64,000 bases of DNA from Oligoflexia bacterium (GCA_031292385.1 JARLHE010000040.1:34471-98470); one strand, 5' to 3'. Counted from the stretch's first letter, positions 1,015 to 22,337 are shown. The notes: generated by a model not told the origin, from the sequence alone. Numbers and translations: made by a program.

Positions 1015-1229
1015 TGTTTTCTCCGTTTCGTTTTTCGCTGATTTAGGCGCCCGCAAAGAGAGGGGGCTCTCTTGCTCGATCGCGCATATCAACGGAGTCA
1101 AGGAGTGCAACTTTCGAACTCGTTGCGGGGCATTGGGCCGAAATGATTGCCACTTTAAAGACGACTAATTCGGTTTTATTCTCAAGCGACCTGCCAATAT
1201 GACGAAAAGAATTGAGGAGCTCATGTCTC

Positions 1230-2885
1230 ATGAGGAGAAGCATTGCGCAAAAGCCCGAAAGGAAAGCGGCGAAGGGCGAATTACCTAGCGTTTATTTAAT
1301 CGCGGGCGGCGGATCGCCGTTCCTCTTTCGGCAGCTCGAGCACTGGTTGCGCTATGAGCGCGCCCATCCTTGTCAATTTTTTAGCTCCGGTATCGAGTTC
1401 ATCAAACGGGTCGAGAACTATCCGAGCGCGGCCCTGGTTATCTTTTATCTCGGCGATAAGTCCGCCTTTTTGGATCTCGATCAGATGGTCAAATTGATGC
1501 AGGCGATGGAGTGGAGCTGGTCAAGCCGGATTATCGTTTTGAACGGATTCGATCACCCGGCGATCAGGAACCATCTAGTCAGTCTGGGATGCTTCGTCTC
1601 GGATTTGGCGAGCTCCGATTTGCGTATGACGAAGCTCAGGATTGAGCGGCATTTGAATGCCCTGGATCAGGGGCTTTCCGATGGAGCCTCGAACTCCGTC
1701 ATCTCCGGAAAAGGGGCGTCGCTTCCGAAATTCAAAGTGCGATGGACGGAGTCCCTCCTGCTGGCGGATGACTGCTGGTTCATCCCGACCGAGCGTTTTA
1801 TCTACAAGACGCAAAAGACGTGGATGGTGTCGCTCGTCGGTTCGCGCTCCTCAGGAAATTGGAAGAAAGTAGGATCTCACCGAAACGGAGTCGACGAGTG
1901 CTGGCATTGGCAAGCGGAAAAGCGCCAGGCGTCTTCCGCGAAGGCGGAGCCGGCGGGCCAGTGGGAGTTCTGGGGGATCAAGCCCGAGTACTACGCGAAT
2001 CGTTGGACCTTCGCGGGAAACCGTCCGCGGCTGCACTTCATTCGCGAAGACGGAAAAACATTCACGCGATTCTACGCGTTGGATGCCCGCACGATCGTGG
2101 TCGCGCCCAATTCCGTTTCGGCGGCCTCTTTGGTGACAATTCGGCGTAAAGAAACGCTCGAGGCCGCTTTGCCGCCGGCCGGTTCGCTTTTCAAGCCGGT
2201 TGCGGACCCGCGGCGAATCGAGGCCTACTTGAAGCGGGCTTGGCATGAGCAAAGAATCGTGAAGCTTTGGCGCGGAAGCTCCAGTCAACCGGTCAGTGGC
2301 CGGATCATCGCCCTCACTGAAGGGGCGAGCCCGGTGCTCAGGCTTCAGGACCGCGAAAGCATGACTGCTTTTATGGATGTTCGGAATTCCGCCGGGAAGA
2401 TCATGGGTAATTTCGGCTATCGCGCCGGCACGCTGTTTTTTTCCGCTCACGTGACGCAGCTCGGAGACGAGGAAAACCTGCTTGGCCTGGCTTTGGAAGG
2501 CGGCCTTTATCGGGTTCAGCGCAGGATCAAACAGCGGTTTTTCATTCAAAACCAAGCTGACATCCGGGCAACGATCGACGGGCACGAGCGACTTCTGATC
2601 GATCTCGGGATGGGCGGTCTTGGTTTTTGTCTGCGTCGGCGCGAGGCGTCTCCTTATGAAGTCGGACAAGTCCTTTCGGTCAAGCTCGGTCTGTTCGCCA
2701 CCAGTTTGGATATCGCCGCGGAAGTTCGCTGGATAAGGGAAGTGGCGCTTCGGGACGGAGTAAAAACGATGGGCGTGGGATTGCGCTTTTTGAAGTTGGA
2801 CACGTTGAGCGCAAGCTATTTGCAGCTCTTACTATTTGATCTCTGTTTCGATCGCAGTACTGGGCAAGAAGCGGACGAGGAGTAG
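1230..2885 (+). CDS. PilZ domain protein with large uncharacterised N-terminal region (possible pseudo-receiver)
   Basis: C-terminal RRIKQRF...DLGMGGLGF is the PilZ RxxxR / DxSxxG motif pair. ATG at 1230 sits 10 nt after a GAGGAG; the track's TTG at 1212 is less likely. Confidence 0.6.
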   Translation: MRRSIAQKPERKAAKGELPSVYLIAGGGSPFLFRQLEHWLRYERAHPCQFFSSGIEFIKRVENYPSAALVIFYLGDKSAFLDLDQMVKLMQAMEWSWSSRIIVLNGFDHPAIRNHLVSLGCFVSDLASSDLRMTKLRIERHLNALDQGLSDGASNSVISGKGASLPKFKVRWTESLLLADDCWFIPTERFIYKTQKTWMVSLVGSRSSGNWKKVGSHRNGVDECWHWQAEKRQASSAKAEPAGQWEFWGIKPEYYANRWTFAGNRPRLHFIREDGKTFTRFYALDARTIVVAPNSVSAASLVTIRRKETLEAALPPAGSLFKPVADPRRIEAYLKRAWHEQRIVKLWRGSSSQPVSGRIIALTEGASPVLRLQDRESMTAFMDVRNSAGKIMGNFGYRAGTLFFSAHVTQLGDEENLLGLALEGGLYRVQRRIKQRFFIQNQADIRATIDGHERLLIDLGMGGLGFCLRRREASPYEVGQVLSVKLGLFATSLDIAAEVRWIREVALRDGVKTMGVGLRFLKLDTLSASYLQLLLFDLCFDRSTGQEADEE

Positions 2886-2896
2886 GATTAAGATCG

Positions 2897-3262
2897 CTAG
2901 CCTTGCTTGATTTGGCGCTCGATGGCTTCCTTGAGAACGACCGCGTTATTGTGATCTTCGTCGCGAGCGGAATAAATCAAAGTCACGGGCGATTTACTGG
3001 CCCGTTTCGCGAGGGTATCAATGGTTTCGCGTGCTGCTTTGGAGCGGAGCTCTAGCCGATATCTGGCGCGGAACTGCTTCCACCGCGACGGGTCGTGCCC
3101 GAAGTCCTTGCGAAGCTCCGGGCTCGGTGCGAGGTCCTTGATCCACTGATCGAGCGCCAGTCTCGATTTTTCGATCCCGCGCGGCCAAAGCCTGTCGATG
3201 AGAACCCGATAACCATCCTTGCGCTCAGGCGGCTCGTACGCTCTTTTCATCTTGATCATCAT
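2897..3262 (-). CDS. DUF488 (YeaO-like) family protein
   Basis: MIKMKRAYEPPERKDGYRVLIDRLWPRG matches the DUF488 N-terminus. Confidence 0.6.
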   Translation of the reverse strand: MMIKMKRAYEPPERKDGYRVLIDRLWPRGIEKSRLALDQWIKDLAPSPELRKDFGHDPSRWKQFRARYRLELRSKAARETIDTLAKRASKSPVTLIYSARDEDHNNAVVLKEAIERQIKQG

Positions 3263-3318
3263 TTCGAGATCATTTCATTTCCCGTACCGGTCATGAGCGC
3301 CTGTCTGGCACGCCCGTT

Positions 3319-3334
3319 TGGCACTCCCTTTGCT
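3319..3334 (+). promoter_or_regulatory. candidate sigma54 (RpoN) -24/-12 promoter TGGCAC-N5-TTGCT
   Basis: Exact match to the consensus TGGCAC N5 TTGCW, 14 nt upstream of the archease ATG. Confidence 0.4.
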
Positions 3335-3347
3335 GCCCTTTGTGCCG

Positions 3348-3803
3348 ATGGGATACCGATATCTCGAGGATCTCGGCTACGCCGACGCCGCCTTCGAGGC
3401 GGAGGGCGTGACCCTGGAAGAGGTGTTCGTATGCGCGGCGGACGCCCTGGCGCATCTGATGGTGGAGGACTTGAATTCAATTCAGCCGAAGACGGTCCGT
3501 CAGATTGAGATCAAGCAGAAAGCCGGAGCACCGAGAGACGATCTGTCGAGATTGCTCCAAGAATTTCTCGAAAAGATCATTTACTGGAAAGATGTCGATC
3601 GGCTTTTGCTTCGCGCCAGCAATGTAGAAGTGAAAATGGCGGCGGCCGACTACGGGAGGGAAGTGATTGGAGAGCTTTGGGGCGAACCGATCGATCCAAG
3701 CCGCCACGCGTTGGGAGCCGACGTGAAGGCGGTTACCTTTCATCAAATGAAGGTCTGGAAAGAAGGGCAGTTGTGGAAAGCGGTCGTGGTCGTTGATATA
3801 TGA
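3348..3803 (+). CDS. archease (RtcB activator)
   Basis: MGYRYLEDLGYADAAFEAEGVTLEEVF aligns with the archease N-terminus (M-Y-Y-..-D-HTAD-...-TLEEAF). The 3' end overlaps the next gene in an ATGA. Confidence 0.75.
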   Translation: MGYRYLEDLGYADAAFEAEGVTLEEVFVCAADALAHLMVEDLNSIQPKTVRQIEIKQKAGAPRDDLSRLLQEFLEKIIYWKDVDRLLLRASNVEVKMAAADYGREVIGELWGEPIDPSRHALGADVKAVTFHQMKVWKEGQLWKAVVVVDI

Positions 3804-4174
3804 ATCGGATCGCCAACATCGTCTTGCTTGCTCATTTTTTGTGGGTTTTAGCGGTACTGCTTCCGGTTTTTCTGATTCCGTTTGGCTTTCGAAGGCGATG
3901 GCGTTGGCCGAGGGACCGTGCGCTTCGCGCCGTCCATCTTGCCATGATCGGAATCGTGATCGTCGAGTCTCTCTTGGGCGTTGTTTGCCCGCTTACTCTT
4001 TGGGAGGATCTGCTTCGAAGACGGGCCGGGAATTCGCCGTACGGGCGCTCCTTTGTCGAGCATTGGGTCGGCCGAGTTCTTTATTACGATTTTCCATCAT
4101 GGGTTTTCGTTGCCGTCTATCTGTTTCTCGGCTTTATCATTCTTATTTTGTATCGGCAGTATCCGCCGGACTGA
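3800..4174 (+). CDS. DUF2784-like small membrane protein
   Basis: Three or four predicted TM helices (LLAHFLWVLAVLLPVFLIPFGF, AVHLAMIGIVIVESLLGVV, VFVAVYLFLGFIILILY). It is translationally coupled to the archease gene. Confidence 0.5.
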   Translation: MNRIANIVLLAHFLWVLAVLLPVFLIPFGFRRRWRWPRDRALRAVHLAMIGIVIVESLLGVVCPLTLWEDLLRRRAGNSPYGRSFVEHWVGRVLYYDFPSWVFVAVYLFLGFIILILYRQYPPD

Positions 4175-4231
4175 TCTGATTCGCGTGCATCTCTTGCAGG
4201 AGCGTCGTTGAAGGAACGGGGACTGTCGCTT

Positions 4232-5734
4232 ATGGCTCAATCAAGTGGCTCGATTGCCGGTCTGCCGACCGAACCGCGGTTCGATATCAGCCGCCTCACT
4301 CCTATCACGGATACTCTGTGGGAGCTGCCGGCTGACGCGGGCCGGGGAATGAGGGTGCCCGCAAGGATCTTCGGTACCCGTCACCTGCTAGAACAAATGG
4401 ATGCCGCGGTCTTCGAGCAAATTACGAACGTGGCGACGCTACCCGGTATCGTTCGATATGCTTGCTGCATGCCCGACGGGCATTCCGGGTATGGTTTTCC
4501 GATCGGAGGAGTCGCGGCATTCGACGCCGCGAACGGGGTGATTTCGCCCGGCGGCATAGGGTTCGACATCAACTGCGGGATGAGGCTCGTTGTGACATCG
4601 CTCACCTTCGATGAGGTGATGCCTCATCTTCATTCGCTCGTGGATCGGCTTTACGACCGGGTTCCGGCCGGAGTGGGTTGCGCGGGTCTACTTCGGCTTT
4701 CAACCGAAGACCTGCTTGAAATCGCGGAGAAGGGCGCGCTTTGGTGCTTGGAAAACGGCTACGCCTGGCCGGAGGACCTGGCGCTCACCGAGGATGGGGG
4801 GCGATCGCTGGGCGCCGATTCGAATCAAATCAGCCCTGAGGCGATCGCCCGAGGGCGCGGGCAAGTGGGGACTCTGGGCTCGGGAAATCATTATCTCGAA
4901 ATCCAGGTCGCTCGACCGGAAAATATTCACGATCCGCAAGTTGCCCGCAACCTCGGCATCGATCTACCGAATCAGGTTGTGATTATGTTTCATTGCGGAA
5001 GCCGGGGCTTCGGTCACCAAGTCGCAAGCGACTACCTGAGGCTCTTCATCGACGTCATGGAAAGAAAGTACGGAATCCGCGTTCCGGATCGGGAGCTGGC
5101 CTGTGCGCCTTTTGATTCGCCCGAAGGTCAGGCCTATTTCTCGGCGATGAAATGCGCGATCAATATGTCGTTCGTGAACCGCCAGGTCATTCTTCACCGG
5201 ATCCGGGAAGTCTTCAGCGACGAGTTTCATAAAGCCCCGGAAGAGCTCGGCTTACGCATGGTCTATGACGTCGCTCACAATACGGCCAAGCTCGAAAATC
5301 ATTGGATCGAGGGCAAGCAGAAAAAGCTCGTCGTTCATCGAAAAGGGGCGACTCGCTCTTTCGGGCCGGAAATGCCGGGTTTGCCCGAAAGATACCGCAA
5401 TTTAGGCCAACCCGTGATTATCGGGGGCAGCATGGAAAGCGGCTCCTATCTGATGCTGGGCCTGTCGAGCGCGGCCCCAGCGTTTTTCAGCAGCGCTCAT
5501 GGCAGCGGCCGAACGATGAGCCGAACTAAAGCCAAGCGTCAGTTCAGGGGGCGACAACTGGCCGACGATATGGCCTCGCGCGGAATTTACGTCAAGAGCG
5601 CATCCTATTCGGGCTTGGCGGAGGAGGCCGGCAAAGCTTACAAGGATATTGACGAGGTCGCTTCGGCGTCGGAGGCGGCGGGATTGAGCAGACGAATCGT
5701 GAAGCTGGTGCCCATTGGAAATATCAAAGGTTAG
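4232..5734 (+). CDS. rtcB: RNA-splicing ligase RtcB (3'-phosphate/5'-hydroxyl RNA ligase)
   Basis: Carries MPDGHSGYGFPIGG, GSGNHY, HNTA and C-terminal SAHGSGR, the RtcB metal- and GTP-binding motifs. The track start at 4208 is TTG; ATG 4232 has GGGGA 10 nt upstream. Confidence 0.85.
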   Translation: MAQSSGSIAGLPTEPRFDISRLTPITDTLWELPADAGRGMRVPARIFGTRHLLEQMDAAVFEQITNVATLPGIVRYACCMPDGHSGYGFPIGGVAAFDAANGVISPGGIGFDINCGMRLVVTSLTFDEVMPHLHSLVDRLYDRVPAGVGCAGLLRLSTEDLLEIAEKGALWCLENGYAWPEDLALTEDGGRSLGADSNQISPEAIARGRGQVGTLGSGNHYLEIQVARPENIHDPQVARNLGIDLPNQVVIMFHCGSRGFGHQVASDYLRLFIDVMERKYGIRVPDRELACAPFDSPEGQAYFSAMKCAINMSFVNRQVILHRIREVFSDEFHKAPEELGLRMVYDVAHNTAKLENHWIEGKQKKLVVHRKGATRSFGPEMPGLPERYRNLGQPVIIGGSMESGSYLMLGLSSAAPAFFSSAHGSGRTMSRTKAKRQFRGRQLADDMASRGIYVKSASYSGLAEEAGKAYKDIDEVASASEAAGLSRRIVKLVPIGNIKG

Positions 5735-5752
5735 AATCATAGGTTAAAAGAG

Positions 5753-6316
5753 ATGGAACGGCTTCGGCTCTTCATTGCCGTCGATGTCGGGGGTGATGTC
5801 CCTCATCGGTATGAAAGCGTCATCGGGAATTTGAAATGGCTCGGCAATTCATCCCGCATCAAGTGGATAGATCCCGGAAATCTCCATCTGACGCTGAAGT
5901 TCCTGGGGAGTACTCCTGTCGAAGCCCTTCCCGTTCTTGAAACGATTCTCAAGGACATCGCGGCGAATCATCGTGCGTTTTTCATCACGCTGGCGGGGCT
6001 TGGGATGTTTTCCACCCGGCAGCGCACGCAAGTGCTTTGGGCCGATGTTCAAGAAGGAAAAACGGAGCTTGAGCGCATCGCCGCGGAGCTGGACCAGTCC
6101 TTGGGGGAATTGGGTATTCCTCGCGAGCCGCGCGCGTTCGCCGCGCATCTCACCTTGGGGCGCGCCAAAGACCGGAGTTTTACGCGGGAGGCGTTAAATA
6201 AGCTCAAAGGCTTTCCATTCGGCACGACGCCGATTTCCGAGCTCGTGCTTTTTGAAAGCCAAACCCTTCCCGCTGGCGCGGTCTATCGCGCGCTTGTCCG
6301 AGCAAGATTGGCTTAG
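5753..6316 (+). CDS. thpR: RNA 2',3'-cyclic phosphodiesterase ThpR/LigT (2H phosphoesterase)
   Basis: Two HxT/S motifs (HLTLKF, HLTLGR) with 2H-family spacing. Lies 18 nt downstream of rtcB. Confidence 0.8.
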   Translation: MERLRLFIAVDVGGDVPHRYESVIGNLKWLGNSSRIKWIDPGNLHLTLKFLGSTPVEALPVLETILKDIAANHRAFFITLAGLGMFSTRQRTQVLWADVQEGKTELERIAAELDQSLGELGIPREPRAFAAHLTLGRAKDRSFTREALNKLKGFPFGTTPISELVLFESQTLPAGAVYRALVRARLA

Positions 6317-6433
6317 CGCGACGGCGCGGTGTCAATAATGCGTATTTATTAACGCGGCTTGTTCGCTCGTTTGTCTTTTCCAACTCATGGAAATTAAGTT
6401 AAATCCATCCATGCGGAGCGGGCGCGGCCAAAA

Positions 6434-6709
6434 ATGGAAAAGACAGGAAATCTTGTCCTTCGGAATTCAATCGTGGCGATCGGTTTCGCTTTGGGCGGGT
6501 GCCAGGCTTCTCCGTCCCAGGATATCCTGGGTTCTTATTTTCCATCTTGGATGTTATGCGCGCTGGTCGGTATTTCTCTCACGATCGGGGCGTATCGGTT
6601 TTTTCTCAAGCAGGGGATCGATGAATTTCTTCCGCTGAAATCCCTGGTGTATCTCGGTTTGACGATCTCCATGACGTTTCTTACCTGGATCTTTTGGTTT
6701 CGGAATTAG
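6434..6709 (+). CDS. YtcA-like (DUF1656) small lipoprotein, efflux-operon leader gene
   Basis: GGCQASPSQDILGSYFPSWMLCAL resembles E. coli YtcA (SGCS..SP..IGAYYPSWFFCA). It precedes the HlyD/FUSC/OMF genes. Confidence 0.65.
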   Translation: MEKTGNLVLRNSIVAIGFALGGCQASPSQDILGSYFPSWMLCALVGISLTIGAYRFFLKQGIDEFLPLKSLVYLGLTISMTFLTWIFWFRN

Positions 6710-6723
6710 ACGAGGAGCGAGCG

Positions 6724-7551
6724 ATGAGTAACAGGCTGATCGGAAGGTCTATCGCACTGGTTGTCCTGGCTGCGTTGGTGGTTTCTTCCGCGCTTGTTAT
6801 TTATTTCATGGATACTCGGCCCCGGACGGATGACGCGTTTCTTTTGGCTTATGTGGCCAATATCGCCCCGGAGGTGTCTGGCCGGATTGTCTCGGTTCAG
6901 GTTCGTGACAATCAAAATGTGCGCGCGGGAGACGTGCTTTTCGTGATCGTGCCCGACCCCTTCCGATTCAAGCTCGAGGCGGCGAAGGCGCAGGCTACGG
7001 TTGCGGCGAGTACTTATGCGCGGATGGAACCCCTTCTGGGCAGGGGTTATGTGACCGCGGACAAGCTCGACCAGGCTCGTGCCGCGAAGGAAAGCTCGCT
7101 CGCTAACGAAGGGCTGGCAGATTACGATTTCCGCCAATCGACGGTAAGGGCACCGTTCGACGGCAAGGTCGTCGGCCTTAATACCGCGAACGGGGAGTAT
7201 GCGAACACCGGGCGCCCTCTTTTCACGATGATCGATACGTCCAGGTGGTATGTGATCGCGAATTTTCGCGAGACCGAAGTCAACGATATGAAGGTGGGGA
7301 CGGATGCGACGGTATATGTGATGGCGGATCGAAGCCGTGCTTTGCGCGGGCACGTCGATAGCGTCGGCTGGGGCGTTACTCCTGAAGAAGGGCAGGTTGT
7401 AAACGGACTTCCGAGGATACCGAAAACGCTGAATTGGGTCAGGCTGGCGCAGCGCTTTCCGGTCAGAATTCTTCTCGATCACCCACCGGACGATTTAATG
7501 CGCATCGGGGCGACCGCCGTGGTCGTGGTACATCATGGTACCCATCGCTGA
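6724..7551 (+). CDS. HlyD-family membrane fusion protein (MdtN/AaeA-like)
   Basis: N-terminal TM helix followed by the biotinyl-lipoyl and beta-barrel pattern of HlyD_D23 proteins. ATG 6724 sits 7 nt after AGGAG. Confidence 0.8.
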   Translation: MSNRLIGRSIALVVLAALVVSSALVIYFMDTRPRTDDAFLLAYVANIAPEVSGRIVSVQVRDNQNVRAGDVLFVIVPDPFRFKLEAAKAQATVAASTYARMEPLLGRGYVTADKLDQARAAKESSLANEGLADYDFRQSTVRAPFDGKVVGLNTANGEYANTGRPLFTMIDTSRWYVIANFRETEVNDMKVGTDATVYVMADRSRALRGHVDSVGWGVTPEEGQVVNGLPRIPKTLNWVRLAQRFPVRILLDHPPDDLMRIGATAVVVVHHGTHR

Positions 7552-9697
7552 AACCTTGGAAGTCAAGTCATCGGGTGGATTTGGTCCGGCGCTGACGAAG
7601 CTACTGCGCTCAGAATTGGGTGCGCGTCCTGGTCGAGTCCAGCATGTCCTTGCCATCAGCGCCTACGCGGTTTTGGCGGTGATTCTATCGGAGACCTTTC
7701 AAATCCCGGAACCGGCCCTGTCCGTTTACTATGTTTTTTTGATCACCAAGGAGGAGACGGCGTCGACGTTTTTGAGCGGAAGCCTGGCGGTTTTGGGCGT
7801 GAGCGCGGCGGTTCTCTCGGCGCTCGCGATTTACATGGTTTCGATCGGCGAGCCTGGCCTGAGGATGCCGCTCATGGCCGTCGTGATCTTCACGATCATG
7901 TTCATCTCGCGCGCATCGCGGCTGGGCGCCGCCAGCACGATGATCGGCCTTTTGGCGATTCAATCGCTCACTTTGCTGGACGTCATTCCGCTCTCCGATC
8001 CGCTTCCTGCCGCGGAATTACTGACGCAGCGGCTGCTTTGGCTTTGGGTGGTTATCCTGATGCCGGTTGGGCTGGTGATCGTGGGTAATATCGTCGCCGG
8101 GCGGGATCCCATTGATCTGTTCACTCACTATCTGGTCGAAGAGTTGGAGCTTGCGGCTCGAGTGCTGGTATCTCATCGCAGGCCCGCCGATCGGGAGCGA
8201 CTTGTCGCTTATGTTCAGGCGGATACGGGCAGGCTTCTGAAGTACCTGAAGATGTCGGGGACGTTCAAGAAGCGAACACTCCAAGAACAGGCGGTCAATC
8301 AGGCGCTGGTCGCTCATATGGGGCGTCTGACGGTGCTGCTTTCGCTATGGACGGAGCTTGACGTCAGTGAATCTCGGCTCGTGGAGGTCGCGGCCGGTTG
8401 CGGAGCCAAGCTTTTGTCGCAGGCGCGATTCATTCGGGAAAAGACGGCGGTTTCCATAAGGGCCTCCACGAAGCCAGAGTCGCCGTCGCTTCATGCCTTT
8501 AGTGAGGGATCGGAGAGCGATTCCGCGACCGAATGCAAGGCCTTCTATCTGCTGCGAAAAATAATTGAGCTGATCGAAACCTTGCCGCAGGCCTTGGTTT
8601 CGCGCGCCTCGTCGGACTCGGTTGAGCTCCAGAGCCGCGAAACCGAAATACCGAATCGGAGATTTCTACGGCCGGATGCGTTTCGCAATCGGGTCTACGT
8701 TCATTTCGCGCTCAAATGCACTCTTTCCGTTTTTACGGCTTATATTACCTACAATTTGTTGGATTGGCGCGGAATTCAGACGTGCATGATTACGACGATG
8801 GTCGTAACTCTCGGCAGCTTCGGAGAAACCGCGCATAAGATGGTCTTGCGCATCATCGGGGCGTTGATTGGCGGCGCCTTGGGGTTCTTGGCCGTCCTCT
8901 TCGTGATTCCTTATATGACGACCATCAGCGAATTGAGCTTGATGGTCGCGGTTGTTGCTTTCTTCTCCGCCTGGGTCATCACCAGCAGCGAACTGCTCTC
9001 CTATGCCGGGTTGCAAATCGCCCTGGCGTTTTTTCTCAGCACTCTCGTCGGATACGAGCCCACGGTGAATCTCGCGATCGGGCGAGATCGAATCATGGGC
9101 GTTTTATTCGGTAATTTGATTGTTTCCATTGTCTTTTCGACGATCTGGCCGGAAAGCGCCGTGGCACAATCAAAAGTGTCCCTCGCGCAGGCGCTTCGGA
9201 AATTGGCGGAATTCTTCGCGCCGGAATCCGAGCATCTGAGCGAGGTGCAGGCCGATTCACTTCTTTTTGAGTTAGGAGCCGCGATCGGGAGCGCGCGGCG
9301 CTTGGCGGTTTTGGACGCCTTTGAGCCCAAGCATATCAAGCAGGGAGCGATCCGGATGGCGGATCCCCGCGAAGTGATCGACGCGGTCCGCGATCTATGT
9401 AGCACTGCGATGGTTTTGCGCGATCCTCTTTTCAGGCATCCCGAACTGCCGTTGCTTACGAAGACCTACGATCAAGCGTTGAGCTTTTGGCTGGCGTTGT
9501 TCGCCAGGGAGGTCGAAGCCGGTATCGATGCCGGCGCTCCACCCGACGCGACTCCGCTGGTCCAAATCCTGCGCTCAGCGGCTCTTTGGTCAACCGAGAA
9601 GGTCGAGCTCCTGGCTTTGGCCGAGTGGTACCGCGCGCTCGATGATCAAGTGCATGGTCTTGAAAGATTGACAAAGCAAAAGGGGGCAACGAAGTGA
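7535..9697 (+). CDS. FUSC-family efflux transporter (MdtO/AaeB-like)
   Basis: 720 aa with two clusters of TM helices separated by a cytoplasmic domain. Overlaps the upstream gene. Confidence 0.8.
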   Translation: MVPIAETLEVKSSGGFGPALTKLLRSELGARPGRVQHVLAISAYAVLAVILSETFQIPEPALSVYYVFLITKEETASTFLSGSLAVLGVSAAVLSALAIYMVSIGEPGLRMPLMAVVIFTIMFISRASRLGAASTMIGLLAIQSLTLLDVIPLSDPLPAAELLTQRLLWLWVVILMPVGLVIVGNIVAGRDPIDLFTHYLVEELELAARVLVSHRRPADRERLVAYVQADTGRLLKYLKMSGTFKKRTLQEQAVNQALVAHMGRLTVLLSLWTELDVSESRLVEVAAGCGAKLLSQARFIREKTAVSIRASTKPESPSLHAFSEGSESDSATECKAFYLLRKIIELIETLPQALVSRASSDSVELQSRETEIPNRRFLRPDAFRNRVYVHFALKCTLSVFTAYITYNLLDWRGIQTCMITTMVVTLGSFGETAHKMVLRIIGALIGGALGFLAVLFVIPYMTTISELSLMVAVVAFFSAWVITSSELLSYAGLQIALAFFLSTLVGYEPTVNLAIGRDRIMGVLFGNLIVSIVFSTIWPESAVAQSKVSLAQALRKLAEFFAPESEHLSEVQADSLLFELGAAIGSARRLAVLDAFEPKHIKQGAIRMADPREVIDAVRDLCSTAMVLRDPLFRHPELPLLTKTYDQALSFWLALFAREVEAGIDAGAPPDATPLVQILRSAALWSTEKVELLALAEWYRALDDQVHGLERLTKQKGATK

Positions 9698-11205
9698 AGC
9701 CCCGTTCGGTTTTGACGAATACGGTAAGTGTCGCGGCCTCTCTGGTTTTGATCGGATGCTCGTCTGTCGCGCACTTGGCGCCGGAATCGCCCAGCCGGCC
9801 CTGGCAGCAAGCCGGAGAATCGCCGCAAAAGCCGATGATCACGCCAAAGTTCGGGGTGCGGCCGGATCCCGAACTTCCCTATAATGAGGAGCGAGTATCA
9901 ATTGCGGCGGATCATGTTTACACGCTCCCCGAGTTGATTGATTTAGCGGAACGCGCGAATCCCGATACGCGCATCGCCTGGGAAGAAGCCCAGCAAGCGG
10001 CTTTTCAGGTTGGGATTGAGCGCGCCAGTTATCTTCCGCAAATCAGCGCGGAAGTGCTTGCCGGCAAGCATTATGAACCGCTGCCGCTGCCGCCGGGAAG
10101 TTATTTCATCGCCAAAGGGGATGATCTTGAGCCTGATTTCATGATCAAATGGCTGCTCTTCGATTTCGGAAAGCGTGAGGCTCAGATTGACGCCGCCAAG
10201 GAGCTCTCCGTCGCTTCGAACATCGCTTTCACGGGTGCGCATCAAAAATTGATCTTCGAGGTGAGTAAGGCTTACTTCTATCTCGACGCGGTACGGGCGC
10301 AGCTTCGCGTTGCCGAGGATGCGCTGAAGAACGCGAATACTTTGCTGGATGCCGCCGGCGCCCGGCGACGGCACGGCTTCGAAACGATCACCGAAGTCAC
10401 GATCGCGCGCCGGGGAACGGCAAAGGCGCAATACGATCTTGAACGAGCCCGCTTGCTTGATAACGACGGCTATCATGCGCTTTTGGAGGCAATGGGTCTT
10501 ACGCCTACTTTGAGGCTGGGAATCGAGTCGAGCTCCGGTCGTCCCTTGCCGAAAGAGCTGACCGAAGAGGTGAGTGCTTACATTGATCGGGCCACCGTTC
10601 AGCGGCCGGATGTGGTCGCGGCCTTGGCTAAGGTTCGGGCGAGCGAATCCGAAATCGCCAAAGCCCAAGCGGAATTTTACCCGACGCTGGAGCTTAAAGG
10701 CCGGGCAGGCAGGAATTTCGCGCCCGTGAGCATCGACTTGGCGTCGGTTTATCAAGCGCCGTCCGGGCCGAGCTATAAGATCGACGATTGGGTCACTTCG
10801 ATTTCTCTCAATCTGAGCTTTTCCATCTATGACGGCGGGATACGCCAGCATAACGTGAGTATCGCCAACTCCAAGAGTGCGGCGGCCAAAGAGGAGCTGA
10901 TCAGAACCCAAGATCAGGCGGTTCGTCAGGTGGCAAGAGCTTACGACACGATGAGGAGCACGCTTGCCGAATACAATGCAGCTTTAGCGCTCGTCGACGC
11001 GGCGAATACGGCTTACGCCTCCGCTCTGGAATCTTATCGCAACGGAGTGGGCACATTCATCGATGCCGTTACAGCCGAAACGGAGAAAGCCCATGCCGAA
11101 TCAGCGCGAGCACAGGCTTATGCCGCGGCCTTGACCGCAGCCGCGACTCTCGCTTTCTCGACCGGCACGCTCACCTCGGTTGAGGCGCTGAATTCATCGC
11201 CTTAA
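9694..11205 (+). CDS. outer membrane efflux lipoprotein, NodT/OprM/MdtP family
   Basis: GTG start overlaps the stop of the FUSC gene. Lipobox LIGC, then the repeated OEP helical pattern of TolC-like proteins. Confidence 0.8.
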   Translation: MKPRSVLTNTVSVAASLVLIGCSSVAHLAPESPSRPWQQAGESPQKPMITPKFGVRPDPELPYNEERVSIAADHVYTLPELIDLAERANPDTRIAWEEAQQAAFQVGIERASYLPQISAEVLAGKHYEPLPLPPGSYFIAKGDDLEPDFMIKWLLFDFGKREAQIDAAKELSVASNIAFTGAHQKLIFEVSKAYFYLDAVRAQLRVAEDALKNANTLLDAAGARRRHGFETITEVTIARRGTAKAQYDLERARLLDNDGYHALLEAMGLTPTLRLGIESSSGRPLPKELTEEVSAYIDRATVQRPDVVAALAKVRASESEIAKAQAEFYPTLELKGRAGRNFAPVSIDLASVYQAPSGPSYKIDDWVTSISLNLSFSIYDGGIRQHNVSIANSKSAAAKEELIRTQDQAVRQVARAYDTMRSTLAEYNAALALVDAANTAYASALESYRNGVGTFIDAVTAETEKAHAESARAQAYAAALTAAATLAFSTGTLTSVEALNSSP

Positions 11206-17850: not shown

Positions 17851-20800
17851 TCAGTGCCGCGCGACCGACGAACACTCCTTTCCTTTGCAATACACGGTTA
17901 AAGTCGCGTCGGCCGGAGCGATATTGTTGCCTAGGTCGGTCTGCAAGGCGCCGACCGGCAACTCGTTGTGGAAGTGGCCCTTGCAATTCCCGATCACGTA
18001 CAACGTCACCGTACAGGAGCCGTTGGCCGGGATCGAGCCACCCTTCAAGGTCACACTTCCCGTTTTGGATATGACCTTTCCTCCGCAAGTGGTTTTGGCG
18101 TAACCGGCGTTTTCCAAGCCGTCAGGCAAATAGTCAGTAAGCGGAGCCGTCAGCTTGGCGATCGTGTTGTTCGGGTTGCTCAGGGTAATGGTCAAGACCG
18201 ATGCCTGTCCCTTTTTGATTTTGTCCGGACAGAACGACTTGCTGAGCGTAGGTGGAATGGTCACGGGAGTCGGAAGAACGGTCAACGTCGCGATGGCCGG
18301 CGCGGCGTTGTTGCCTGCGCTTGTCTGCAAGGCGCCGATGGCCAACGTGTCGATGTAATTGCCTCCGCTGGCAACGGTCACGGGCACCGTTATCGTGCAG
18401 GAGCCGTTGGCCGGGATCGCACCTCCCGTCAATGTCACCGTTGAAGCGCCGGTACTGACCACACCTCCGCAGGTATTGCTGGCGCTGCCGGAAACCACGA
18501 CACCGCTGGGTAACGTGTCCGTAAGCGGCGAGGTCAGGCTCGCAGCCGTTGCGTTGGTGTTGCTGAGGGTGATGGTGAGAGTCGAAGCACCGCCCGAAGG
18601 AATCGTCGCCGGGCTGAAGGCCTTGCCAAGCGTGACGGTAGAGGGAATGGAAACCGTCAACGTCGCGATGGCCGGAGCGGTATTGCTTCCGCTACTGGTC
18701 TGCAATGCACCGACGGCAAGCGAATCGATGTAGTTGCCGCCGTTCGCCGCGGTCACGGGCACCGTCACGGTACAGGATCCGTTAGCCGGGATCGATCCTC
18801 CGGTCAGAGTCACCGTCGACGAGCTTGTGGTGACCGTGCCGCCACAAGTGTTGCTCCCGCTACCTGAGACTACGAGTCCGCTAGGCAACGTATCGGTAAA
18901 CGGCGAGGTTAATGCCGCGGCTGTCGCGTTGGCGTTGCTCAGGGTAACGGTGAGAGTCGATGTACCGCCCGCCGCGATCGTTGCAGGGCTGAAAGCCTTG
19001 CCCAACGAGGGCGCGACCACCGGCGTGATCACCGTCAGGGTAGCGATGGCCGGGGCGGTATTATTGCCGTTGCTCGTCTGCAAGGAGCCAGCGGGCAGGG
19101 TGTCGATGTAGTTGCCGCCGTTCGCCGCGGTCACGGGTACCGTCACCGTGCAGGAGCTGTTAGCCGGGATCGCTCCTCCGGTCAGCGTCACCGTCGAAGA
19201 GCTTGTGGTGACCGTGCCGCCACAAGTGTTGCTCCCGCTACCTGAGACTACGAGTCCGCTAGGCAGCGTATCGGTAAACGGAGCGCTTAAGCTCGCGGCC
19301 GTCGCGTTGGTGTTGCTCAAGGTAATGGTGAGCGTCGAGCTTCCGCCCGCATTGATCGTGGCCGGGCTGAAGGCTTTGCCCAGCGCGGGCGCGACCTCTG
19401 GCGTATTGACGGTCAATGTCGCGATTGCTGGAAACGCATTGATTCCGTTGCTGGTTTGCAGGGAACCGGCGGCGATCGAGTCGATATAGTTGCCCCCATT
19501 AGCGGCAGTCACGGGTACCGTGACCGTGCAGGAGCCGTTGGCCGGGATCGATCCGCCCGTCAGGGTTACCGTAGAAGTCGTTGTAGTGACCGTGCCGCCA
19601 CAAGTGCTGCTCCCGCTGCCAGAGACGGCAACACCACTTGGCAGCGTGTCGGTGAACGGCGAGGTCAGGCTCGCGGCCGCCGAATCAGCGTTGCTCAGGG
19701 TAATGGTGAGGGTCGAGGTACCTCCCGCATCGATAATCGCTGGGCCAAATGCTTTGCCGAGAGTCGGCGCTATCACGGGAGCGACGACCGTTAAGGTCGC
19801 AACCGCTGGAGCGGCATTGGCGCCGTTACTGGTCTGCAATGCGCCGGCAGCCAATGAGTTGATGTAGTTGCCGCCGTTTGGCGCGGTCACAGGTACCGTG
19901 ACCGTGCACGAGCCGTTGGCCGGGATCGCTCCAGCCGATAGGGTCACTGTCGAGGAGGTCGTGGTCACCGTACCGCCGCAGGTGTCGCTGCCGCTGCCGG
20001 AGACGGTAACACCGCTCGGCAATGTGTCGGTGAGCGGCGAGGTGATGCTCGCGGCCGCCGAATCGGCGTTGCTCAGGGTAATGGTGAGGGTCGAGCTACC
20101 GCCCGCATTAATGGTGGCTGGAGCGAAGTCCTTGCCGAGCGTGGGCGCGGTGGGCGGTTGAGGAACGGTCAAGGTCGCAACTGCCGGAGCGGCGTTGCTT
20201 CCATTGCTGGTCTGCAAGGCACCGACGGCGAGCGAGTCGACGTAGCTGCCGCCGTTCGCGGCGGTCACGGGCACGGTGACCGTGCAGGAACCGCCGGCCG
20301 GGATCGAACCTCCCGTCAAAGTAATTGCTGAAGTGCTTGTCGTGATCGTACCGCCGCAGGTGGTGCTACCACTGCCGGAGATCACTACGCCGCTGGGCAA
20401 CGTATCGGTGAATGGGGAGGTTAGGCTCGCGGCCGTGGTGCCGGAGTTGCTCAACGTGATCGTGAGGGTCGATGGGTTCCCCTCGCTGACGGTGGCCGGA
20501 CTGAAGGCCTTGCCAAGAGTGATTTCAGGCAGGGCGCACACGGAGAGCGTGACGACATTGGAATCCATCGTCACCGCGCCGTTCTGAGCCAGAGTTCTGC
20601 CGGATACAGTGGCGTCGGTATTGAGCGTGATGCTCGTAAGCGCGAGAATATTTCCTATGAATGTCGTGCTTGTACCGATCGTCGCGGAGCTGCCGACTTG
20701 CCAAAAGACATTGCATTCTTGAGCACCATTAATGAGCAGCACGGACGAGCCACTCGCCGTCGTGAGTGTGCTCCCTATCTTGAAAATCCAGACCGCATTT

Positions 20801-21270
20801 GGATTGCCTTGGGCATCTAGAGTGACCGCTCCCGTCAGTTGAGCCGAGGACGAAAAGCAATAGACTCCCGGCACGAGTGTGAGTCCGCCGATATCCGTTG
20901 GAACGCCATAGGTGGTATCGCACGCCTGGCCCGCCAAATCGTTATACGCGGTAGTGGTATCGCTCTGAGCCTGAGCCGCTACCGCATCCGCCGCGTGTAT
21001 GGTCCCTCCGACCACGGTTCCCGGCGGAAAGCCCGTGACCGCCGTGCCCGGGCTGACTCCAAGATTTCCGGTCACAATGCTCGGCCCGGTATTGGTTACC
21101 GTCGAGGCTCCGAGTACGGCAAAGCTCTGCGCAGTCCCCAATGAAGGCGCGACCTGTGCCCACGCCGCATGAAATGAGGGGGCAAAAGGAAACGCGGCGA
21201 TCGCGCCGATAAACGCAAACTTCGCAAAAACGCTTTTAAAAATTCTAGTTCGAACGATGGGACTTTTCAT
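17851..21270 (-). CDS. large secreted surface protein: ice-binding-like DUF3494 beta-helix head + ~8 DUF11 repeats
   Basis: Signal peptide MKSPIVRTRIFKSVFAKFAFIGAIAAF. The N-terminal domain (AQSFAVLGASTVTNTGPSIVTGNLGVSPGTAVTGFPPG...AQSDTTTAYNDLA) matches the DUF3494 IBP-like consensus. It is followed by ~125-aa repeats with TDTLPSG..VSGSGS.TCGG...SCTVTVPVTA (DUF11-like). The track's ORF start at 21360 is an unsupported extension. Confidence 0.8.
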   Translation of the reverse strand: MKSPIVRTRIFKSVFAKFAFIGAIAAFPFAPSFHAAWAQVAPSLGTAQSFAVLGASTVTNTGPSIVTGNLGVSPGTAVTGFPPGTVVGGTIHAADAVAAQAQSDTTTAYNDLAGQACDTTYGVPTDIGGLTLVPGVYCFSSSAQLTGAVTLDAQGNPNAVWIFKIGSTLTTASGSSVLLINGAQECNVFWQVGSSATIGTSTTFIGNILALTSITLNTDATVSGRTLAQNGAVTMDSNVVTLSVCALPEITLGKAFSPATVSEGNPSTLTITLSNSGTTAASLTSPFTDTLPSGVVISGSGSTTCGGTITTSTSAITLTGGSIPAGGSCTVTVPVTAANGGSYVDSLAVGALQTSNGSNAAPAVATLTVPQPPTAPTLGKDFAPATINAGGSSTLTITLSNADSAAASITSPLTDTLPSGVTVSGSGSDTCGGTVTTTSSTVTLSAGAIPANGSCTVTVPVTAPNGGNYINSLAAGALQTSNGANAAPAVATLTVVAPVIAPTLGKAFGPAIIDAGGTSTLTITLSNADSAAASLTSPFTDTLPSGVAVSGSGSSTCGGTVTTTTSTVTLTGGSIPANGSCTVTVPVTAANGGNYIDSIAAGSLQTSNGINAFPAIATLTVNTPEVAPALGKAFSPATINAGGSSTLTITLSNTNATAASLSAPFTDTLPSGLVVSGSGSNTCGGTVTTSSSTVTLTGGAIPANSSCTVTVPVTAANGGNYIDTLPAGSLQTSNGNNTAPAIATLTVITPVVAPSLGKAFSPATIAAGGTSTLTVTLSNANATAAALTSPFTDTLPSGLVVSGSGSNTCGGTVTTSSSTVTLTGGSIPANGSCTVTVPVTAANGGNYIDSLAVGALQTSSGSNTAPAIATLTVSIPSTVTLGKAFSPATIPSGGASTLTITLSNTNATAASLTSPLTDTLPSGVVVSGSASNTCGGVVSTGASTVTLTGGAIPANGSCTITVPVTVASGGNYIDTLAIGALQTSAGNNAAPAIATLTVLPTPVTIPPTLSKSFCPDKIKKGQASVLTITLSNPNNTIAKLTAPLTDYLPDGLENAGYAKTTCGGKVISKTGSVTLKGGSIPANGSCTVTLYVIGNCKGHFHNELPVGALQTDLGNNIAPADATLTVYCKGKECSSVARH
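18359..20245. repeat. five near-identical 378-bp tandem repeats inside the surface-protein gene, flanked by more diverged copies out to about 17854 and 20460
   Basis: Antisense ORFs recur at 18359, 18734, 19112, 19490 and 19868 with a 378-nt period and near-identical translations. Confidence 0.7.
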
Positions 21271-21451
21271 ATCAGGCTCCGAATGCTCATTAATAAATGA
21301 AGATGTTTCTTCCGTCAGATCTGCGATGTGACCGCGGGGCCTGTGCAGAATTGGTGCCATCGATGCATCGGGAAAAACGACTGGGCTGGCGCTACATCAC
21401 CGAGTTTCGTGCGTAGCTCGCTTCATGTTGCAATTCACGTTGCAGGAGGCA

Positions 21452-22183
21452 TTAGTTGGGTGAGTAGGATGCCGACCAAATCAAGTCGTTACCGAGTTCG
21501 CATTCGGCGTTCGGCTGGGTCAGCTGAAAGGGGCCCCAGAAAACAGGGCACGAGCATTCCGCATAGCCATTTTCGATTCGGCAGGGTGCCGTCATACATC
21601 CCGCGTAGGGCGCTTTGGGGCACTGGGTAATCCCGGATGCGCCCGAATGCGCAGCCATTGCCTCGCTCTGGGAGGTCCTCACTTGTGGGCTGAAATCGGA
21701 AATGATTTCGGCGCCGGGAATCAGTTTTCCTTGCTGGATGTAGCGGCAAACGGGGGCCTTATCTACCTGCGTTGCGCAACCACTTCCGTCCATTCCACAG
21801 ACGGAGACCGTTTCCAGATATACATCGTAGTTCAAAATGGAGTTGATGGTGACAAACTGAAGTCCCGACTCAATGGTGCACTTGCAGTTTGCAAAGCGGC
21901 CTGTTTTGTCTAGTGTGCATGGCAGAGGCTCGGGCCCTGAGTTGAAGCAAAGCGCGTAGCTGCCAGTACACGGCAAGAAGTTCGATAGCGCTTCATTCGT
22001 ATCCCGATAAGCGGGACCGTAATTCGTGGTCCAGTGCTTTGAGTAGTCCCAGAACTCCTGGGAGTCGGGGACGAAATGGACCGGCTTGCATTGGCCTTGA
22101 GCGAACGCCCCTGTTGCGGCGACGCAAAGCAGGGCGACTAAAAAAGCGAAATTCTGAATCTGTTTCACCGAAATTATCTCCAT
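21452..22183 (-). CDS. secreted cysteine-rich hypothetical protein
   Basis: Signal peptide FAFLVALLCVAATGAFAQGQ, then about 15 Cys in the mature part. Lower GC than its surroundings. Sits 181 nt upstream of the surface-protein gene on the same strand. Confidence 0.5.
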   Translation of the reverse strand: MEIISVKQIQNFAFLVALLCVAATGAFAQGQCKPVHFVPDSQEFWDYSKHWTTNYGPAYRDTNEALSNFLPCTGSYALCFNSGPEPLPCTLDKTGRFANCKCTIESGLQFVTINSILNYDVYLETVSVCGMDGSGCATQVDKAPVCRYIQQGKLIPGAEIISDFSPQVRTSQSEAMAAHSGASGITQCPKAPYAGCMTAPCRIENGYAECSCPVFWGPFQLTQPNAECELGNDLIWSASYSPN

Positions 22184-22337
22184 TTATGCTTGGGCGAGCA
22201 TGTAAACGCCATCTCTGTCGCCTTGCATAGATTCGACATTGCTCCTCATCGCAGGCGGGGTGCAGCCAAGTGCAGATGTTGTGCCACCAAAAATGCGATC
22301 ACATCGCGATCATGACTCGTGATCGGAGGCCTTAAGA

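Follow-up and report, generated by a model that had tools for sequence, protein, structure and literature searches.

A compact RtcB-archease gene cluster with a probable sigma-54-type promoter, a ThpR-type cyclic phosphodiesterase gene and a DUF2784 membrane protein gene in an Oligoflexia bacterium

A cluster of genes related to RNA ligation was analysed in a 64,000-nucleotide stretch of DNA from the metagenome-assembled genome of an uncultured Oligoflexia bacterium (GCA_031292385.1, JARLHE010000040.1:34471-98470; the whole stretch is hereafter called the window). Between positions 2,897 and 6,316 it encodes a DUF488 protein, archease, a small DUF2784 membrane protein, the RNA ligase RtcB and the 2H phosphodiesterase ThpR (LigT). 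We favour, with a probability of roughly 55%, the reading that the last four genes make up a compact operon with a probable sigma-54 promoter, in which RtcB and archease form the core, ThpR a parallel branch and DUF2784 an accessory, with DUF488 as a neighbour. Transcription from the sigma-54 promoter would make expression of archease, DUF2784, rtcB and thpR activator-dependent and inducible, and RtcB together with archease would perform RNA ligation. ThpR, which the 18-nt spacing of its gene suggests is co-expressed with RtcB, would not feed the ligase. Instead it would open 2',3'-cyclic phosphates (on RNA ends or in 2',3'-cyclic nucleotide monophosphates) to 2'-phosphates that RtcB cannot seal, a branch that would run parallel to ligation, compete with it or clean up, perhaps disposing of or masking unligated cyclic-phosphate fragments and possibly removing a cyclic-phosphate signal. 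The DUF2784 protein would be a three-helix membrane protein and lineage-specific accessory of the operon, for which a facultative tie to the ligase is possible, for instance in handling metal for this Mn-dependent enzyme.

All five genes named in the first-pass annotation were recovered at the positions it gave them by open reading frame (ORF) calls, inspection of the sequence and Pfam searches. On the plus strand, archease (3348-3803; 151 aa; PF01951, E=3.2e-31) is followed by the DUF2784 gene (3800-4174; 124 aa; PF10861, E=8.7e-27, 93.8 bits, gathering score 29.7), by rtcB, encoding an archaeal-type 3'-phosphate/5'-OH RNA ligase (4232-5734; 500 aa from the ATG at 4232; PF01139, E=3.8e-159), and by thpR, encoding a ThpR/LigT-type 2H RNA 2',3'-cyclic phosphodiesterase (5753-6316; 187 aa; PF02834, E=1.5e-23; TIGR02258, 131.6 bits). 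The intervals between them are -4, 57 and 18 nt; both the ATGA overlap of archease and DUF2784 (3800-3803) and the 18-nt spacer between rtcB and thpR (5735-5752) proved exact when read in the sequence. An alternative TTG start for rtcB at 4208, preceded by AGGAG, would reduce the middle interval to 33 nt. The archease ORF opens at a TTG (3318), and the ATG at 3348 coincides with the start of its homologues in the alignment. The overlap at ATGA and the short rtcB-thpR spacer imply shared expression. No stable fold or terminator-like structure was found in the spacer between DUF2784 and rtcB, and a sequence scan of positions 2700-6600 returned no sigma-70-like promoter and terminator-like matches at chance level. 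An imperfect hairpin with a U-rich tract 3' of thpR (6315-6380, plus strand; minimum free energy -25.8 kcal/mol, z-score -1.35), which the terminator scan did not pick up, is a weak candidate for the end of the operon.

The promoter-like element TGGCACTCCCTTTGCT at 3319-3334 (plus strand), 14 nt 5' of the archease ATG, is a perfect match to the sigma-54 (-24/-12) consensus TGGCAC-N5-TTGCW, ending in TTGCT. Neither strand of the 64-kb window holds another exact match (0.03 expected by chance), and the element is correctly oriented within the 85-nt intergenic region that separates the archease ATG from the DUF488 gene, which is indeed encoded divergently and immediately upstream. A second TGGCAC (3306-3311) lies 13 nt upstream of the consensus. 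As the sole perfect sigma-54 consensus of the window precedes archease, a single regulated transcription unit is suggested. This placement, the same-strand packing and the terminator-free spacer support the earlier proposal that archease, DUF2784, rtcB and thpR are likely to constitute one transcription unit, probably transcribed from a sigma-54 promoter. Sigma-54 control of an rtcB operon through RtcR has precedent, the inducer in that case being cyclic-phosphate tRNA halves (PMC7790460).

Several observations weigh against this assignment. Operon and promoter alike are called from sequence alone. Transcription is predicted to start near 3345, which would render the archease mRNA nearly leaderless, with a leader of only ~2-4 nt. 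The GAFTGA motif of enhancer-binding proteins is absent from all six frames of the window and, since a sigma-54-type promoter would require such a protein and the window encodes none, it would have to be encoded elsewhere. The upstream regions of rtcB and archease in relatives contain no sigma-54 motif (0 of 165), and a search for upstream activator sites in 3050-3360 returned weak repeats only. The absence of RtcR recorded in the first-pass annotation was borne out, the divergent gene being DUF488.

Motifs with one mismatch to the sigma-54 consensus (TGGCAC-N5-TCTGCA) occur twice elsewhere in the window, at 21344-21359 and 22271-22286, both on the minus strand. The former stands at the start of a gene for a 1,169-aa surface-type protein (17851-21360; Ice_binding, DUF11 and seven DUF7933 repeats) and the latter 88 nt upstream of an ORF (21452-22183) whose 243-aa product has no match in Pfam. 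These may be further sigma-54 promoters of the organism, but three matches at such stringency do not exceed chance (1.5 expected).

RtcB and archease, a well-known RNA ligation module, form the core of the cluster. RtcB covers positions 1 to 426 of the 426-position PF01139 profile and matches the Pyrococcus horikoshii RtcB structures at E ~1e-152. The motifs DINCG, GSGNH, H-x-GSRG-x-GH, AHN and HG-x-GR are aligned and conserved between the two proteins; we take them to supply the metal ligands (Asp, Cys and His) and the GMP ligands, including the GMP-accepting His, as in the P. horikoshii structures. Ligase activity is thus predicted from homology with intact catalytic residues. The protein is 100% identical to an NCBI entry annotated 'RtcB family protein [Oligoflexia bacterium]' and scores 143 bits, far under the cutoff of 407, against NCBIfam PRK09588, a 379-residue 'RNA ligase RtcB family protein' equivalog. 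In an alignment with its P. horikoshii counterpart (4n2p, E=3.1e-14), archease keeps the N-terminal A-D, the lysine of V-K-A-V-T and the C-terminal D-I; it is predicted to activate RtcB guanylylation. PMC3973293 and PMC4604427 present RtcB-archease as an established ligation module encoded in a published operon. A 651-aa close homologue of RtcB from a 3.5-kb ENA contig (P0011) was considered as a fusion protein and rejected: some 150 residues are duplicated in tandem (~160-320 repeated), probably an assembly artefact.

Conservation was assessed by searching 6 kb either way of each rtcB or DUF2784 gene, the loci being labelled L001-L177. The 83 related rtcB loci, from which the window's own locus was excluded, comprised the three closest relatives (L004, L006 and L008/L009; 78% RtcB identity) and 80 metagenomic loci (L090-L169; 64-69% identity). 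Archease was found near rtcB in 72 of the 83, including 69 of the 80 metagenomic loci, where it always lies 3' of rtcB. In the three closest relatives the two genes are on the same strand, 3-5 kb apart, and opposite-strand genes that differ entirely from contig to contig occupy the interval. CBS/DUF2267/PBP, PCMT and HIT genes lie in L004:2311-7470, PRTase, AAA_33 kinase, Usp and NAD synthase genes in L006:278-7479, and an acyl-AMP ligase/acyltransferase gene in L008:2678-7503; within this clade the interval behaves as a gene-insertion hot spot.

The accessory genes fared differently from archease in this comparison. DUF2784, ThpR and DUF488 are all missing from the three closest relatives. 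Among the metagenomic loci, a DUF2784 gene accompanies rtcB once (L103; 1 of 83 overall) and a ThpR homologue once (L124; again 1 of 83), where it is convergent, so that the linkage seen in the window could be accidental; DUF488 was found near none of the 83. The ThpR and DUF488 linkages to rtcB are essentially unique to the window's contig. The order archease-DUF2784-rtcB-thpR, whose conservation the first-pass annotation had put forward as one check on its proposal, is found neither in the three closest relatives nor in the 80 further loci, and the archease-DUF2784 pair alone recurs, in the Geobacteraceae. Searches from the side of DUF2784 gave a similar picture: in 80 genomic DUF2784 loci (L010-L089; several phyla, mostly Betaproteobacteria), RtcB, archease, ThpR and DUF488 were found within 6 kb in none.

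It is possible that only archease and RtcB cooperate and that DUF2784, ThpR and DUF488 are passengers, perhaps co-transcribed but with no shared function. The lack of any conserved accessory linkage and the 0 of 80 DUF2784 loci argue for this, as do the changing contents of the archease-rtcB interval in the three closest relatives, which point to a permissive insertion site, and the ongoing loss of DUF2784 in the Geobacteraceae described below. Conversely, the close packing of the genes (the ATGA overlap, the 18-nt spacer) implies joint expression, and ThpR and RtcB target the same chemical end. Moreover, DUF2784 is a rare family (PF10861; 3,158 clusters among 1.84 billion), yet it follows archease again in a distant lineage, with another gene order and another DUF2784 subfamily; by a rough estimate, the chance of such a second independent adjacency is ~1e-3 to 1e-2, which is suggestive, not conclusive. 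On balance we consider passengers a real but less favoured explanation and retain the operon with accessory functions.

The DUF2784 ORF is a bona fide member of its family, and its product, like RtcB, has a 100% identical counterpart at NCBI. Seven residues (H12, H46, C63, P64, T66, E69 and R73) are invariant across 69 sequences (the window protein and 68 homologues), and an AlphaFold2 model of the protein, with its three hydrophobic spans, has a mean predicted local distance difference test score (pLDDT) of 87. The first-pass annotation had treated a lack of synteny, or a spurious ORF, as fatal to its proposal; the gene proved genuine, synteny was absent from the nearest relatives and family-wide, and the step from archease to DUF2784 reappeared in the Geobacteraceae. 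Applied to the model, the positive-inside rule would put the Arg-rich loop (residues 30-43) in the cytoplasm and the invariant CPLT-E-R motif at the periplasmic face, a topology with which a role in transport or metal handling would agree. Recent transfer of the gene was considered and set aside: its GC content at third codon positions is 0.57 against 0.63-0.70 in its neighbours, but that of ytcA, which also encodes a small membrane protein, is 0.59, so the value is not diagnostic.

Little can be read from the wider family. No match was found in PDB fold space and no domain fusion among the top 150 of the 3,158 DUF2784 cluster representatives, all of which are short (81-206 aa). The literature found was confined to Rv2044c, located beside pncA in M. 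tuberculosis. The closest homologues (L001-L003; 39-47% identity) adjoin CHRD, glutamate synthase or rhodanese/flavocytochrome-c-sulfide-dehydrogenase genes, the order in L003 being rhodanese, DUF2784 and flavocytochrome-c-sulfide-dehydrogenase. In the Betaproteobacteria the recurrent downstream neighbours are flavocytochrome-c-sulfide-dehydrogenase-like, cytochrome-c-like and ClpA-like genes, and upstream an EamA-like transporter gene recurs, as read from the cluster sequence. This betaproteobacterial block has a sulfur-oxidation flavoured context, and the family has an invariant Cys.

In the Geobacteraceae, rtcB, archease and DUF2784 follow one another on one strand in L103, L170/L171, L172 (Geomonas silvestris, GCA_014193515.1), L175 and L176. 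The spacers between archease and DUF2784 measure 16-107 nt, and in L176 the two genes overlap by 4 nt as called. The DUF2784 proteins of these loci form a distinct subfamily, marked by a CPLTHLEVWLR motif and a first loop that is shorter, and are ~26-31% identical to that of the window (L103 ~26% on average); those of L170/L171, L172, L175 and L176 are 64-99% identical to the L103 protein. The two cases differ in DUF2784 subfamily and in gene order. The adjacency of archease and DUF2784 has arisen independently at least two times and is facultative and decay-prone.

This recurrence has to be set against evidence that tells against a fixed role for DUF2784 in the operon. The gene is missing from the syntenic block in the Geobacteraceae loci L101, L107 and L108, whose RtcB proteins are 83-90% identical to that of Geomonas silvestris, and in L118 it survives as a C-terminal remnant (residues 70-116, 72% identical; L118:8261-8401). 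Homologues of the L103 type at 57-62% identity in other taxa (L173/L174 and L177) are unlinked to RtcB and archease, as are the closest homologues of the window protein in L001-L003. Since most relatives lack DUF2784, the RtcB-archease module is generally independent of it; since the step from archease to DUF2784 arose separately in the Geobacteraceae, a facultative tie is possible.

Other genes of the Geobacteraceae block could relate to RNA or to regulation. A PF0610-like winged-helix/zinc-ribbon gene is convergent with DUF2784, with a 4-nt overlap at the stop codons (L170:5348-5644, L172:5351-5701, L175:5354-5668, L176:5372-5686 and L103:8424-8657), and a gene for a protein with four S1 domains lies divergently upstream of rtcB. 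Archease abuts the convergent PF0610-like zinc-ribbon helix-turn-helix gene at L101:7909-7916, L107:2328-2334 and L108:7919-7929.

A further candidate for an RtcB-linked factor emerged from the metagenomic loci. A CobW/COG0523-type G3E GTPase is encoded on the rtcB strand in 43 of the 83 loci and stands between rtcB and archease in 36. The protein comprises ~295 aa, carries a GGGCVCCS (CxCC) metal motif and matches Pfam cobW and CobW_C; L126:3212-4099 is an example, and L105, L119, L125, L129, L135 and L151 are among the other carriers in L090-L169. It may be a metallochaperone for Mn-dependent RtcB. Our searchable library contained no literature linking COG0523/CobW with RtcB or archease.

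These findings raise the tentative suggestion that DUF2784 is a dedicated, if facultative and previously unrecognised, membrane accessory of archease-RtcB, recruited independently in Oligoflexia and Geobacteraceae and serving either to supply or buffer Mn2+ or to protect the oxidation-sensitive active-site Cys. In this capacity it would fill a role that the COG0523 metallochaperone-type GTPase may play in sister operons. Of the roles open to speculation, a link to metal is the most attractive, given the His/His/Cys/Glu invariants and the COG0523 parallel. The suggestion draws on the independent adjacency in two phyla, on the invariant His, His, Cys and Glu as plausible metal ligands, on the frequency of the CxCC-bearing GTPase in rtcB operons, and on the metal dependence of RtcB, whose Cys ligand is prone to oxidation (PMC12263435). 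Set against this, the predicted periplasmic position of CPLT-E-R disfavours direct contact of that motif with cytoplasmic RtcB or archease, only a small minority of DUF2784 genes are linked to RtcB and only a small minority of rtcB-archease operons contain DUF2784, the gene decays within the Geobacteraceae, and neither structure nor domain fusions offer a clue. We therefore hold so specific a role to be doubtful and keep to the looser assignment of DUF2784 as an accessory of the operon.

The first-pass annotation had coupled the ThpR cyclic phosphodiesterase to ligation by RtcB, with ThpR healing 2',3'-cyclic phosphate ends in preparation for sealing. The adjacency and probable co-transcription of the two genes, and the action of both enzymes on cyclic-phosphate RNA ends, are in keeping with such a model. 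The identity of the enzyme is well supported: ThpR exceeds the cutoff of the TIGR02258 equivalog ('RNA 2',3'-cyclic phosphodiesterase'; 131.6 against 65.7 bits), among solved relatives the best is Pyrococcus PH0099 (E=5e-23), and both extended motifs that define ThpR (HxTxxF and HxTxxR; PMC4201822) are present as HLTLKF and HLTLGR, aligned with those of PH0099. However, E. coli ThpR, with which the window protein shares these motifs, opens the 2',3'-cyclic phosphate of RNA to a 2'-phosphate, on which RtcB, with its strict requirement for a 3'-phosphate, is inert (PMC4201822). RtcB also carries out a cyclic phosphodiesterase step of its own, which yields the 3'-phosphate (PMC4201822; PMC3458531). 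A 2'-phosphate could be re-cyclised by RtcA (PMC3854526). No RtcA was found among the RtcA-sized ORFs scanned, which were a part of the window's ORFs, and the gene after rtcB is the 2H phosphodiesterase, in agreement with the first-pass annotation. Because 2'-phosphate ends made by ThpR would not be sealable by RtcB, and with the linkage absent in relatives, the proposed coupling is disfavoured: healing that feeds sealing is unlikely and ThpR more probably represents a parallel or competing branch. The product specificity in this argument is borrowed from the E. coli enzyme, which counts against the parallel-branch reading.

A negative feedback role, in which ThpR would destroy the cyclic-phosphate RNA fragments that activate an enhancer-binding protein in a sigma-54/RtcR-like circuit, would suit the sigma-54 consensus ahead of the operon and a ring opening that reverses the RtcA reaction (RtcA generates the inducer in Salmonella, the opposite of this role; PMC7790460), but is improbable given a promoter that is only predicted, a window with no RtcR or enhancer-binding protein, an arrangement seen in no relative and a wholly inferential line of argument.

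The divergent DUF488 gene (2897-3262, minus strand; 121 aa) matches PF22752, the 'inactive DUF488-N3 subclade', at E=3.4e-41 and PF04343 at E=6.8e-35; the N3i score compares with E=2.8e-29 for the 'active' N3a subclade. No sequence relative was found in the PDB, and the DUF488 papers found gave no function. As it has no conserved linkage to rtcB, DUF488 is probably a mere neighbour that lies outside the system. The gene converges with an upstream PilZ-domain gene, with 11 nt between the stop codons; the latter (1212-2885, plus strand) encodes a 557-aa protein whose PilZ domain (E=1.9e-7) is C-terminal and whose ~430 N-terminal residues have no Pfam match.

On the other side, directly 3' of thpR, a tightly overlapping four-gene efflux cluster (6434-11205, plus strand) encodes a YtcA-family small protein, an HlyD-type membrane-fusion protein, an FUSC (fusaric-acid-resistance/AaeB-like) inner-membrane protein and a 503-aa ORF that we read from position and sequence as an outer-membrane factor. 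With no relation to RNA repair, it delimits the rtcB cluster on this side. An anti-phage defence role was also considered and rejected, a PADLOC scan of six proteins having returned no match. Rfam and tRNA scans of the window identified two tRNAs, 23.8 kb and 50.4 kb distant, and no other Rfam family.

Compared with known systems, the locus most obviously resembles the rtcB-archease 'tRNA splicing operon' of P. horikoshii and many bacteria and archaea (Desai et al. 2014, PMC3973293; Desai et al. 2015, PMC4604427). Both have an archaeal-type RtcB and archease on one strand in one cluster, whereas the window has archease first, a membrane-protein gene wedged in, a 2H gene after rtcB and a predicted sigma-54-type promoter. 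With the RtcR/sigma-54-controlled rtcBA operon of E. coli and Salmonella (Hughes et al. 2020, PMC7790460) it shares an rtcB operon with a sigma-54-type promoter (in the window predicted from a consensus match only) and an enzyme of cyclic-phosphate ends. It differs in having no adjacent RtcR, in that no RtcA was found, and in a partner, ThpR, that would open the cyclic phosphate, whereas RtcA forms it. The window RtcB is furthermore of the archaeal, archease-dependent type, and archease is not part of the rtcBA and rsr-yrlBA-rtcBA operons described there. ThpR resembles E. coli ThpR and Pyrococcus PH0099 (Remus et al. 2014, PMC4201822) in its two motifs and in passing TIGR02258, its activity being predicted; its position 18 nt 3' of rtcB sets the gene apart, the sole linkage among the 83 loci being convergent.

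Two further arrangements can be compared in the same way. In the Geobacteraceae block, too, DUF2784 comes directly 3' of archease and shares its strand; there, however, the order is rtcB-archease-DUF2784, the DUF2784 subfamily is another one, and ThpR and a sigma-54 motif are absent. The metagenomic rtcB-COG0523-archease operons also hold a third same-strand gene between rtcB and archease; the product of that insert, however, is not a membrane protein but a soluble, CxCC-bearing G3E GTPase. The locus is thus a lineage-specific variant of the RtcB-archease operon class.

RtcB-archease is a universal 3'-phosphate RNA ligation system, and the targets and needs of its bacterial versions are poorly known. 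The locus pairs the ligase with a predicted opener of cyclic phosphates, the opposite of the classic RtcA, with both probably under sigma-54 control, a hint that in some bacteria re-ligation of cyclic-phosphate RNA ends is weighed against their disposal. Were the linkages described here fortuitous, it would amount to no more than an ordinary RtcB-archease operon. The adjacency of archease and DUF2784 provides a first functional lead for an uncharacterised family of membrane proteins, and its recurrence, together with the commoner rtcB-COG0523-archease arrangement, gives two testable leads to RtcB accessory factors. Should DUF2784 and COG0523 prove to be such accessories, cofactor delivery would be a general and unexplored requirement of bacterial RtcB.

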